Assembly: GCA_963514005.1 (NCBI GenBank)
Contig: OY740800.1
Span: forward strand, 29,202,001-29,266,000
DNA length: 64,000 nt
Direction: 5' to 3'
Origin: Raja brachyura
Taxonomy: Eukaryota
A program made the translations under genes and the position numbers. Positions within the stretch are counted from its first letter, which is position 1, and the number at the start of each line of letters is the position of its first letter. Positions 1 to 13,145 of this stretch are shown here, in pieces. The notes under the pieces were generated by a model, which worked only from the letters and a program-made list of their open reading frames with translations, ran no database searches and was not told the DNA's origin.

Positions 1-546
1 AGGCAACAACCATCACCCTTATTAAACACAACAACCTTCAAATAAGTTCTGAACTACATAAACTTGGGGGTCATTATTTTCTCTATTTTGCACTATTATT
101 TTTGTAATATTGAACATATATGCTGAATAATATTTGTTATTTATTATGGTATTTTCAAATCGATTCAATCTTTATTGTCATTGTGCAGTGTACAATACAG
201 AGACAACAAAATGCAGTTGGTATCTCCGAAGGGCGAACTTACGAATGAACAAGTAACTGCGCAGTAGTATGAGTTAATATACGTCTATACATATACAGTG
301 TCCGGGGGGGAGGGGTGGAGACAGGCAGTCATTGAGGTGCAGCGTTGAGATGTGTGACAGCCGTAGGGAAGAAGCTGTTCTTGAGCCTGCTGGTACGGCA
401 GCGGAGGGACCTGTAGCGTCTCCCGGATGGGAGGAGGGTAAACAGTCTATGGTTGGGGTGTGAGCTGTCCCTGGCATTTACAGAGTACTATGTTTACATT
501 TTACTTGACTCTAGAATTGGAAGAACGTTCTATATGTGGACGTTCT

Positions 547-679
547 TCTTGCGTATGGCGTGCACAGCCTAAAGCTGTAGGACAACTTGTTCCATTTGAT
601 CTTACTTGATTGTGCACGCCAGGTTGATTGCATTCGTCGAAACAGGGCGGACCAGGTGAAGGTTGCAATCTCCAACCCC
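547..679 (-). mobile_element. HDV-like-ribozyme-headed short retroposon, copy 1
   Basis: Flanked by TSD tgtggacgttct (535-546) / tgtggatgttct (680-691). Minus strand starts GGGGTTGGAGATTGCAACC and ends CATACGCAAGA(AGAA). Near-identical to the copies at 1651 and 12578. Confidence 0.85.
626..679 (-). ncRNA. Minimal HDV-like ribozyme, degenerate copy (P1 mismatch, L3 G>C)
   Basis: P1 GGGGTTG/CCGCCCT, P2 GATTGCA/TGCAATC, P3 ACC/GGT, L3 TTCACCT, J4/2 CGAA. Folded by eye. Confidence 0.65.
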
Positions 680-1650: not shown

Positions 1651-1704
1651 GGGGTGGAAGATTGCAACGTTCACGTGGTCCGCCCTGTTTTGACTAATGC
1701 AATC
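1651..1704 (+). ncRNA. Minimal HDV-like ribozyme (one P3 mismatch)
   Basis: P1 GGGGTGG/CCGCCCT, P2 GATTGCA/TGCAATC, P3 ACG/GGT, L3 TTCACGT, J4/2 CTAA. Confidence 0.7.
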
Positions 1705-1787
1705 AACGCGGCATGCACAATCAAATAAGATCAAATAGAACAAGTTGTCCTACAACTTTAGGCTGTGCACGCCATACGCAAGAGGAA
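1651..1787 (+). mobile_element. HDV-like-ribozyme-headed short retroposon, copy 2
   Basis: Perfect 12-bp TSD gatgatggtggt (1639-1650 and 1788-1799). Starts GGGGTGGAAGATTGCA and ends CATACGCAAGAGGAA. Confidence 0.88.
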
Positions 1788-3162
1788 GATGATGGTGGTA
1801 TATTGAATGATATATTTAGATGAGGGTGGTGTATATTTTGGTTACTGCTGCATTTGATCTGCATGGCCGAATAATGGATGCTGCAGAATAACAGAATTTA
1901 GAAGAATTCTGTATTTGTGACACGCCTGAAGTTGACGCAGCTAGTATAGAATTTATTGTAGCAGAACAAATGTCTTTGCCCTATTAAACATATCAAACCT
2001 CATGGGATTATAAATGGTAGCTGGCACACTAGACAGTGGAATGTTTTCTGAAGATAACGGTATCACAATCTATAGTAAGGTTCATTGCAGTATAGATGGA
2101 GATACATGGGAAGGACCCAAGGGACTTATTGGCTCCAGATGGGCAGACTATGGAATAGCTACATAATGGAATAGAGATAATTTTTAAGCTTTCCTAAAGC
2201 AATTAATCCCTTAAGAAATACAGGGAAAGGTGACAGTTTTTGAACACAAATGGTTAGCAGAGAATATGCATCTACTGTAAAATACAGGTCCATTTGAAGG
2301 GATGTGATGTTGATAAAATGAATCAAAGGTATGTTTTAATATGATTGGATATTGACAAGGATATGTCTTGTATTGCGTTAGTCAAAGGTCTTTGAGCTAT
2401 AGTTAACAAAATGATCGGTAACCTTTAACGTTTATATTGGACTAATGTAATTATGCTCATTGTATAAATATCACTGTGATTTTTACGTCGTCTCAAGTTC
2501 TATAAGATTATCTTCCTTTCAAATAAGGCAATACAGGAATTTGAGTTTTAATTGGTGCTAGTGCCGAGGGTGACTAAACTCCCATGAGACATCCATTTTC
2601 AAGATGTTCCATTCAGCCTGACTATTACAAAACAATACATTAGAGAATGCCCTTGGTTGATGATTGATCTCCATAAATACTGTGCTCTGCTCAATTCTAA
2701 CAATGTTGTCAAAAAAAGATGATCTGCTCTAGGTCAAATTATAAAGATACTACATGAGGTAAAATAGGTTTATCCCTTGTTTTGATTCATTCACTACCTG
2801 CTGAAAATTGCAGATTAATAACTGACTTTAAATTTCACAACTGCTACCATGGAAATTCTGGTCTTTCAGTTGTTAATTGAGATTTCTAAATTTGCTAATA
2901 AATGAAAATCAAACTGCAGCTGCTGTAAATCTGAAATTAAAACAGAAAATGCTGGAGGCAATTAGTAAAATATCAGGCAGCACCCGTAGAAAGAGAAATT
3001 GAGCTAACATTCAGTTTGAAGACTTCCTTAGACTACTTCTATGATCTAATATGTTAATGTTTCCCTTTCCACAGAGGCAGCCTGATCTGCTGAATGTAGC
3101 CAGTATTTTATGTGTTAATTCTAGATTAATCATCGTGGAATGTAACCATAGTGCCACCACTC

Positions 3163-12390: not shown

Positions 12391-12577
12391 GGAAAAGAAA
12401 CAGTAAGAATAGCAATGAGTACATCAAGTCCCTTTGTTCGTAAACCTGTACAACTACAGTGTAAAGAATGCATATTATCCCCCAAACTACTGACCCATTC
12501 ACACTTTAAACATCCTTAACCCTTAAGGATGGCCAGTTGATGGCATGGTCGTCTACACCTTCCATCACTTGGCTGAT

Positions 12578-12709
12578 CTTCTTGCGTATGGCATGCACAG
12601 CCTAAAGTTGTAGGTCCACTTGTTCTATTTGATCTTGTTCGTGCAAGTCGGGTTTGATTGCATTAGTCGAAACAGGGTGGACCACGTGAAGGTTGCAATC
12701 TCCCACCCC
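12578..12709 (-). mobile_element. HDV-like-ribozyme-headed short retroposon, copy 3
   Basis: TSD acttggctgat (12567-12577 and 12710-12720). Minus strand starts GGGGTGGGAGATTGCAACC and ends CATACGCAAGAAG. Confidence 0.88.
12656..12709 (-). ncRNA. Minimal HDV-like ribozyme, structurally intact copy
   Basis: GGGGTGG-GA-GATTGCA-ACC-TTCACGT-GGT-CCACCCT-GTTTCGA-CTAA-TGCAATC: 7-bp P1 with G1.U wobble, 7-bp P2, 3-bp P3, 7-nt L3, vestigial P4, catalytic C in CUAA. Confidence 0.8.
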
Positions 12710-13145
12710 ACTTGGCTGATAATTGAGATAGACTGAGAACACAGTAATTAGCCAGATTAGATTTGTGAAAACATATCTTCCACACTCACAAAGTGCTGGT
12801 GGAACTCAGTCTGAAGAATGGTCCCGACCCAAACCATCACTTGTCTAATCTCTTCACAGACGCTGCCTGAGCCACCGAGTCCTCTAGCACTTAGTGTTTT
12901 GCTAAAGATTCCAACACCTGCCATTCCTTGTGTCCCCATATCTTCCACATGGATGGGTAGATGTCAGTGTTGTAATTGTATTTGAAAAACTAAGCTAGAG
13001 GTCCAATTAGTTCTAAAGAACTTGTCTTCTCGACTATGGTCTGGTCGTTTAGCCAATGTTGTATCCATTGCTCTATTGCATTTTCTTGATACCTCAACTG
13101 TCTTCTATGTTGGTGGGGATAGAGGAAGCCAAGTTGGATCATATA

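Follow-up and report, generated by a model that had tools for sequence, protein, structure and literature searches.

The 132-bp insert on the minus strand of the analyzed stretch of DNA (64 kb in full, hereinafter "the window"), at positions 12709-12578, is almost certainly an internally deleted copy of a Vingi-type LINE, the head of which likely cuts its own transcript before the first nucleotide, G1, and the RNA of which is copied by the LINE protein. This model is based on the ends common to the insert and the LINE, the presence of TSDs, the 5′ edge located at G1, and a covarying fold found in Vingi-like families.

Anatomy and Predicted Fold of the Mini-Element

The insert, further referred to as the mini-element, or mini, is flanked on each side by an 11-bp TSD, as the initial annotation of this DNA had indicated. 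Its parts and the other family members in the window are as follows (the basis of each assignment is given in parentheses):

12710-12720, minus strand: 5′ copy of the TSD, ATCAGCCAAGT, 11 bp, or 12 bp with G1 counted (sequence)
12656-12709, minus strand: 54-nt P4-less HDV/CPEB3-like ribozyme fold, the same as the head of the parent LINE, with predicted cleavage 5′ of G1 at 12709 (descriptor, LINE alignment)
12703-12709, minus strand: P1 5′ strand GGGGTGG, partner CCACCCT at 12674-12680, G1.U36 wobble (descriptor)
12694-12700, minus strand: P2 5′ strand GATTGCA, partner TGCAATC at 12656-12662 (descriptor)
12681-12693, minus strand: P3 (ACC/GGT) and L3 TTCACGT, the latter being the L3 of the Rfam CPEB3 consensus (descriptor, Rfam consensus)
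12672-12673, minus strand: J1/4 GT; predicted P1.1/T1 pseudoknot C22-G37 plus U21.U38, like that of CPEB3 (descriptor, PMC9901934)
12667-12671, minus strand: 5-nt stub TTCGA where P4 would be (descriptor)
12663-12666, minus strand: J4/2 CTAA with the predicted catalytic C44 at 12666 (descriptor, copy comparison, Rfam consensus)
12635-12655, minus strand: retained remainder of the LINE 5′ UTR, LINE nt 55 to ~75 (LINE alignment)
12617-12634, minus strand: junction linker of 18 nt lacking a match to the LINE ends and differing among subfamilies (LINE alignment, copy comparison)
12578-12616, minus strand: final 39 nt of the LINE, comprising the ORF end D-L-Q-L-stop (stop at 12602-12604), the 3′ UTR and an (AAG)2 tail (38/39 identical to LINE copy L084)
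12567-12577, minus strand: 3′ copy of the TSD, ATCAGCCAAGT (sequence)
1651-1789, plus strand: second family copy, P3 broken by one change (copy comparison)
544-679, minus strand: third family copy, P1 and L3 altered (copy comparison)

The nested HDV/CPEB3-type double pseudoknot of 54 nt proposed in the initial annotation was recovered letter by letter, with canonical pairs at 17/17 positions across P1, P2 and P3, the G1.U wobble and a 2-nt J1/2 (GA). A strict HDV descriptor applied to both strands of the 64-kb window matched at 12709 alone; a relaxed descriptor matched at 12709 and in the sister copy at 1651, and gave zero matches in the window after replacement of the catalytic C by A, G or T. 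The L3 core (U, C, G) and J1/4 GU are identical to the Rfam CPEB3 consensus. The copy at 12709 was rightly described as the best preserved of the three in the window, one pair being broken in each of the other two. Overall, the head of the window copy very likely has an HDV-like fold, and self-cleavage of intact copies 5′ of G1 is predicted with good confidence.

Other claims made from the letters fared unequally. The absence of a tRNA, 5S or 7SL head was borne out: ARAGORN detected no tRNA, and the Rfam scan of the window returned no family, 5S and 7SL included, at the gathering threshold or E<=10. The HDV/CPEB3 model search suggested in the annotation, done with the Rfam models, gave no match to the window head at the same thresholds, so these models overlook the P4-less head. 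The stub in place of P4 does exist; its reading as TTCG, with a UUCG tetraloop, was discarded, since the stub comprises 5 nt (TTCGA) and a P4-less sister family carries TTCCA (see below), so the tetraloop is not required. Likewise, the (AAG)n tail is present, but as just (AAG)2 in the window copy.

Nested folding of the whole element yielded an alternative structure at -29.4 kcal/mol vs. -22.7 kcal/mol for P1 and P3 alone, although energies of this kind cannot score pseudoknots and P2 is not countable in the latter figure. The folding energy of the head alone was no better than that of shuffled sequences (z 0.20). Pairing of the linker with the tail was no better than in shuffles either (267/500), so a model of end-to-end pairing lacks support. 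Another high-copy repeat resides directly upstream of the mini-element, at 12790-12920 of the window.

Origin from a Vingi-Type LINE

A pattern combining a D-L-Q-L-stop type ORF end with CCATACG from the 3′ UTR had 129 matches vs. 0 in the control. These turned out to be 5′-truncated LINE copies possessing the 3′ UTR of the mini and an (AAG)n tail, with a CCHC knuckle encoded upstream. Two walking steps in the 5′ direction led to 10 distinct copies starting with the head of the mini, followed by a short UTR and then an APE ORF; one copy, L121, extends from head to tail within ~3.1 kb. Fragments of the LINE pass the cut-offs for APE (PF14529) and RT (PF00078). The nearest intact homologue, P0001, is a protein of 1019 aa harboring APE, RT and a zinc knuckle and collinear with the entire L121 at 55-69% identity; RNase H was found neither in P0001 nor in four relatives.

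In the alignment of the mini with this LINE, nt 1-75 of the mini correspond to nt 1-75 of the LINE, and nt 94-132 to its last 39 nt. The partner LINE anticipated in the initial annotation as the source of mobility was found, with the same head and the same tail. At the same time, the designation of the element as a SINE equivalent had to be abandoned, the mini being an internal-deletion (bipartite) derivative of a 3.1-kb LINE whose 5′ end is the head. What the annotation called a "~70-nt domain" consists of LINE 5′ UTR and LINE 3′ end with a short junction between them. In other words, the mini is of the SIDE type, with LINE 5′ and 3′ ends only and no ORF, and, being composed of both LINE ends, it should be termed a bipartite non-autonomous LINE, not a SINE.

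According to the published descriptions, Vingi elements encode one ORF of ~993 aa (PMC3708506) and, unlike Ingi, are devoid of RNase H (PMC13708176). The parent displays these marks: a single ORF of ~1000 aa with APE and RT, an element length of ~3.1 kb, and no RNase H. Two reference elements, Ingi-1_Pp and Ingi-1_BF, were later renamed Vingi. Their motifs are shared by the RTs of P0001 and P0093 in a by-eye comparison with the RTclass1 supplement. Overall, the parent is almost certainly a Vingi/Ingi-type LINE and the mini its bipartite derivative.

No intact ORF was found among 17 long LINE copies, the longest open frame being 313 aa; with 17/17 of them broken, the LINE system looks inactive now. 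Six of ten long copies begin at nt 5-10 and thus miss most of the P1 5′ strand. A search for LINE heads that excluded the A-rich linker of the mini retrieved mostly shorter mini subfamilies, with one match representing a LINE head. Several minis (L035, L046, L047, L052, L270 and L311) have deletion junctions unlike that of the main type, an indication that minis arose from the LINE repeatedly and independently. Counts of linker classes, obtained with crude patterns, were discarded as unreliable. A full-length parent LINE was also spotted with a mini copy, complete with its own TSD, inserted in its 5′ part (L158, 410-548).

Genomic Copies, the 5′ Edge and Variation of the Head

A 22-mer of the head had at least 21,399 matches in the genome at <=2 mismatches (a lower bound for the number of heads) and 0 in the control. 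The best 30 copies all begin at or beside GGGGTGG and differ in their flanks. Since these copies had been picked on the whole element, a second sample was picked by the 3′ end alone. This sample, biased towards young copies, consisted of 80 of the first 82 of 1,751 places, the two omitted ones being already known LINE 3′ ends. It included 66 short head-bearing copies, 3 LINE 3′ ends and 11 truncated or interrupted copies. G1, regarded in the initial annotation as the 5′ edge of the element, is reached in 63/66 of the short copies. A TSD of 8-16 bp (median 11) is present in 50/66, and its end falls within -2..+1 of G1 in 43 of these 50. Dispersed, and bearing TSDs and tails of their own, the copies appear to have been mobilized independently, by TPRT. 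Still, a sharp 5′ edge is expected for any short element with a fixed start and cannot separate cleavage from an internal promoter.

The predicted catalytic C44 is kept in 62/66 copies, whereas the adjacent position 45 is variable. Within the family, variant letters exceed 25% at only 4/54 head positions, all structure-neutral: 8 (J1/2), 32 (U-A to U.G), 42 (the stub) and 45 (the base following the catalytic C). By our own rule, 51/162 single changes are structure-neutral, so that four of four would arise by chance with a rough p of ~0.01. Position 42 belongs to a CpG, hence its variation may represent decay rather than a change in a master copy. Every pair and core base is intact in only 15/63 sampled heads.

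The mini family is present in contigs of organisms A-F, where neither an RNA start nor an empty-site allele was detected. Head variants reach >=5% only at positions 32, 42 and 45 in the contigs of organisms A-D, and loose ends accumulate at 12709-12710.

The Same Fold in Related Vingi-Like Families

Metagenome contigs were scanned with a 31-protein alignment, which gave 80 loci, 26 of them keeping the APE start. An HDV-like parse was found directly upstream of the APE ORF in 6/26 of these loci vs. 0/52 reversed or complemented controls. In the remaining 20/26, the upstream part is short, truncated or decayed; three further heads, adding one more family, were seen by eye. Across 8 families, all P2 cells pair while the letters vary at 6/7 P2 positions, and covariation is also evident at P1 positions 3 and 5-7 and at P3 positions 1 and 3. 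At the same time, G1 (as G1.U), the L3 core and C-N-A-A are unchanged, with a P3 mismatch in one copy. The covariation was taken from the descriptor parses, because MAFFT placed P4 and P2′ wrongly in the case of the window head. The descriptor itself selects for pairing; hence, the independent signal is the location of the parses at LINE 5′ ends together with the 0/52 outcome in the controls.

A genuine P4 stem occurs in most of the relatives, which makes the 5-nt stub of the mini a reduced form. A second P4-less mini family (L349-L357), ~135-165 bp long to the tail, has a distinct head with a TTCCA stub, an (AAG)n tail and TSDs; it scores just 35-37 bits on RF00622. As read from its letters, this family lost P4 likewise, keeping the putative catalytic C. 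CPEB3-like heads with a P4 form three or more further families in the genome (L328-L348, L350). At L332, an APE-RT ORF comes after such a head; this ORF belongs to the same protein group and has P0093 and P0104 as relatives. The P4 of L331 resembles that of mammalian CPEB3.

Inverted 5′ Tips of LINE Copies

In some truncated LINE copies, the outermost part of the LINE 5′ end lies inverted where the truncation occurred. This was encountered in 6/30 truncated LINE copies picked by the 3′ end and in 3 of another 30 (L066, L069, L071, L075, L077, L082, L100, L112, L119). Ordinary adjacent inversions numbered 0 and 2 in these two sets. The inverted tip ends at nt 4-13 in 7/9 copies, the joined body starting 1-3 kb further on, and the inverted piece has TSDs on its flanks in four or more. 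From this arrangement, second-strand synthesis would seem to be primed, at the second DNA nick, on a 5′ UTR kept close to the target. If both RNA ends reside near the target, the internal deletions making minis would be favored.

Among the CPEB3-like sister loci, the head is inverted against a truncated ORF in 8/30 (L331, L333, L334, L336, L340, L341, L344, L348). A density estimate from locus flanks was dropped because of few matches, 4/10 of which were inverted LINE heads. Among the papers found on twin priming with ribozymes, none concerned Vingi, judging by titles and the opening lines of abstracts.

Proposed Mode of Propagation and Its Alternatives

The life cycle of the mini may comprise the following steps. 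A host or internal Pol II transcript would pass through an intact copy, read-through being slightly favored as the main source of transcripts. The ribozyme would then cut 5′ of G1, leaving an uncapped, compactly folded 5′ end, and the LINE APE-RT protein would bind the retained 3′ end in trans and insert the RNA by TPRT, with TSDs of 8-16 bp. Internal deletions probably yielded minis more than once, presumably because a head and a tail are the only elements needed in cis.

The strongest alternative holds that the head serves chiefly as an internal Pol II promoter, alone or combined with a ribozyme, and that the 5′ edge is the transcription start. There are precedents: in L1Tc and NARTc, one 77-nt stretch (Pr77/L1TcRz) is both promoter and ribozyme (PMC3383444), so the mini, promoter-less according to the initial annotation, may contain a promoter after all; and bipartite LINEs were argued to be Pol II transcripts with 5′ ends driving transcription (Kojima 2018, PMC5786205). 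The TSD data cannot distinguish a start from a cut. A promoter alone, however, leaves unexplained the base-pair covariation amid free sequence change across the families. Copying of a cap would enrich G at position -1. In the 63 full-length copies, G occupies this position in 10/63 vs. a background of ~22%, i.e., without an excess, and T in 33/63 vs. 28%, although G1 itself may be cap-derived. The prevalence of T and the missing excess of G are weakly consistent with an RT running off an uncapped end. Extra T-rich bases between the TSD and G1 were also noted among L248-L327; along with the T at -1, they would fit an untemplated A added at the cDNA end. We consider the promoter reading unlikely, if worth keeping in mind.

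Even less probably, the fold persists as a 5′ module for protection or protein binding, and cleavage by the P4-less form is poor or absent. With R2 templates, the efficiency of insertion was reported to rise through the ribozyme structure as such, and Bombyx R2 barely cleaves (PMC11331408). In the mini, a possible small hairpin of G37-C44 and U38-A43, seen in the sequence, could hide C44, and the inverted tips suggest a 5′ UTR positioned near the target site. Against this, P4-less theta ribozymes cleave in vitro, and the C-to-U change abolishes their cleavage (PMC10879173). Furthermore, none of the 8 parsed families has lost the C, the A's following it, G1.U or the L3 core, and the second mini family also lost P4 yet kept the C. 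A true Pol III SINE (tRNA, 5S or 7SL), or a captured head joined to a LINE tail, is hardly tenable: the size, copy number and LINE-derived 3′ end are SINE-like and TTCGA resembles part of the B box, but the LINE copies with this head refute the idea by revealing it as the parent's own 5′ end, neither a tRNA nor an Rfam match was found, and related families have a real P4 stem or TTCCA where TTCGA stands.

Comparison with Known Systems

With a LINE derivative that likely cuts its own 5′ end as the preferred reading, the closest counterparts of the mini are NARTc, RIME and SIDER of trypanosomatids, the non-autonomous derivatives of L1Tc/ingi bearing the HDV-like ribozyme Pr77/L1TcRz (PMC4035085, PMC3383444). 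Like the mini, they are short, internally deleted LINE derivatives with an HDV-like head at +1, TSDs and a parent from a sister clade. In contrast, the mini resides in an animal genome, descends from a Vingi-type parent without RNase H, and has a 54-nt P4-less head (a predicted ribozyme), a length of 132 bp and more than 21,000 copies. SIDEs of Drosophila R2 (Eickbush and Eickbush 2012, PMC3414825) similarly make a minimal mobile unit of a ribozyme 5′ end and a LINE 3′ end; however, R2 belongs to the RLE elements and is restricted to rDNA, while the mini is APE-type, dispersed and abundant. Internally deleted Vingi elements keeping both ends are represented by the Vingi-1_EE derivatives and SINE2-1_ACar (via Kojima 2018, PMC5786205). 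As for the fold, drz-Mtgn-1 and the theta ribozymes (Kienbeck 2024, PMC10879173) feature the same P4-less nested double pseudoknot with the catalytic C first in J4/2. Nearly all of them occur in gut phages beside tRNAs, whereas the mini head belongs to an animal retrotransposon and was reduced from a P4-bearing Vingi head.

Thus, ribozyme-headed bipartite LINEs (NARTc/RIME, R2 SIDE) and bipartite Vingi elements are already known. The new features, all concerning predicted ribozymes, would be a ribozyme head in the Vingi clade, the occurrence of a P4-less ribozyme within an animal genome, and a link to CPEB3. The presence of HDV-like ribozymes in some LINEs and SINEs is noted in a review (PMC6765202). 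In the available text of Kojima 2018 (PMC5786205), Vingi is absent from the listed ribozyme clades, and no answer is offered as to why such derivatives are formed by RTE, Ingi, Vingi and R2 alone. The research papers searched contained no report of a Vingi ribozyme, and Ruminski's "Ingi" examples might include Vingi.

If the prediction is true, all four LINE clades with bipartite derivatives that lack an ORF (RTE, Ingi, Vingi and R2) would bear 5′ ribozymes, suggesting that self-cleavage makes head-plus-tail parasites viable. It would also mean that P4-less HDV ribozymes extend from gut phages to an animal genome, in thousands of copies. Vingi, native 5′ UTR included, serves as a platform for gene writing (PMC13708176), so a ribozyme there and the insertions with inverted 5′ tips would bear on the design of templates and on junction fidelity.

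Relation to the Mammalian CPEB3 Ribozyme

The window head shares with the CPEB3 ribozyme (RF00622) the L3, the J1/4 GU, the 2-nt J1/2, and the 7-bp length of P1 and P2; the T1 of CPEB3, composed of a C-G pair and a U.U pair (PMC9901934), is the one predicted here as well. Still, the P1, P2 and P3 sequences of the window head are different, P4 is missing, and RF00622 does not match it. In addition, CPEB3 is a single conserved intronic copy, unlike the high-copy mini family.

The P4-bearing sister heads come much closer. RF00622 scored above its cut-off of 35 bits in the genome at 32 of the 41 places listed, with a best score of 65.8 bits, and matched none of 14 control genomes. In the gharial element Vingi-2_Gav (PMC5786205 supplement), nt 2-74 coincide with the Rfam CPEB3 consensus at 46/48 non-P4 positions in a comparison by eye. 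Since the matches include paired positions free to change among Vingi families, descent is likelier than convergence. By these sequence matches, the Vingi sister heads likely indicate the source of the mammalian CPEB3 ribozyme, which would thereby gain the outgroups missing in Bendixsen 2021 and a testable origin. It seems fairly likely, overall, that HDV-like ribozymes constitute the standard Vingi 5′ end, that their P4-less shrinkage recurred in high-copy minis, giving a first large collection of minimal ribozymes within an animal genome, and that the mammalian CPEB3 ribozyme, thus far unknown beyond mammals, is a domesticated Vingi 5′ end.

The CPEB3 likeness of Vingi-2_Gav passes without remark in the available text of PMC5786205. 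The supplement of the same paper also presents an alligator tRNA SINE, SINE2-1_AMi, nt 61-127 of which are a copy of a Vingi-2_Gav-type head with a changed L3.
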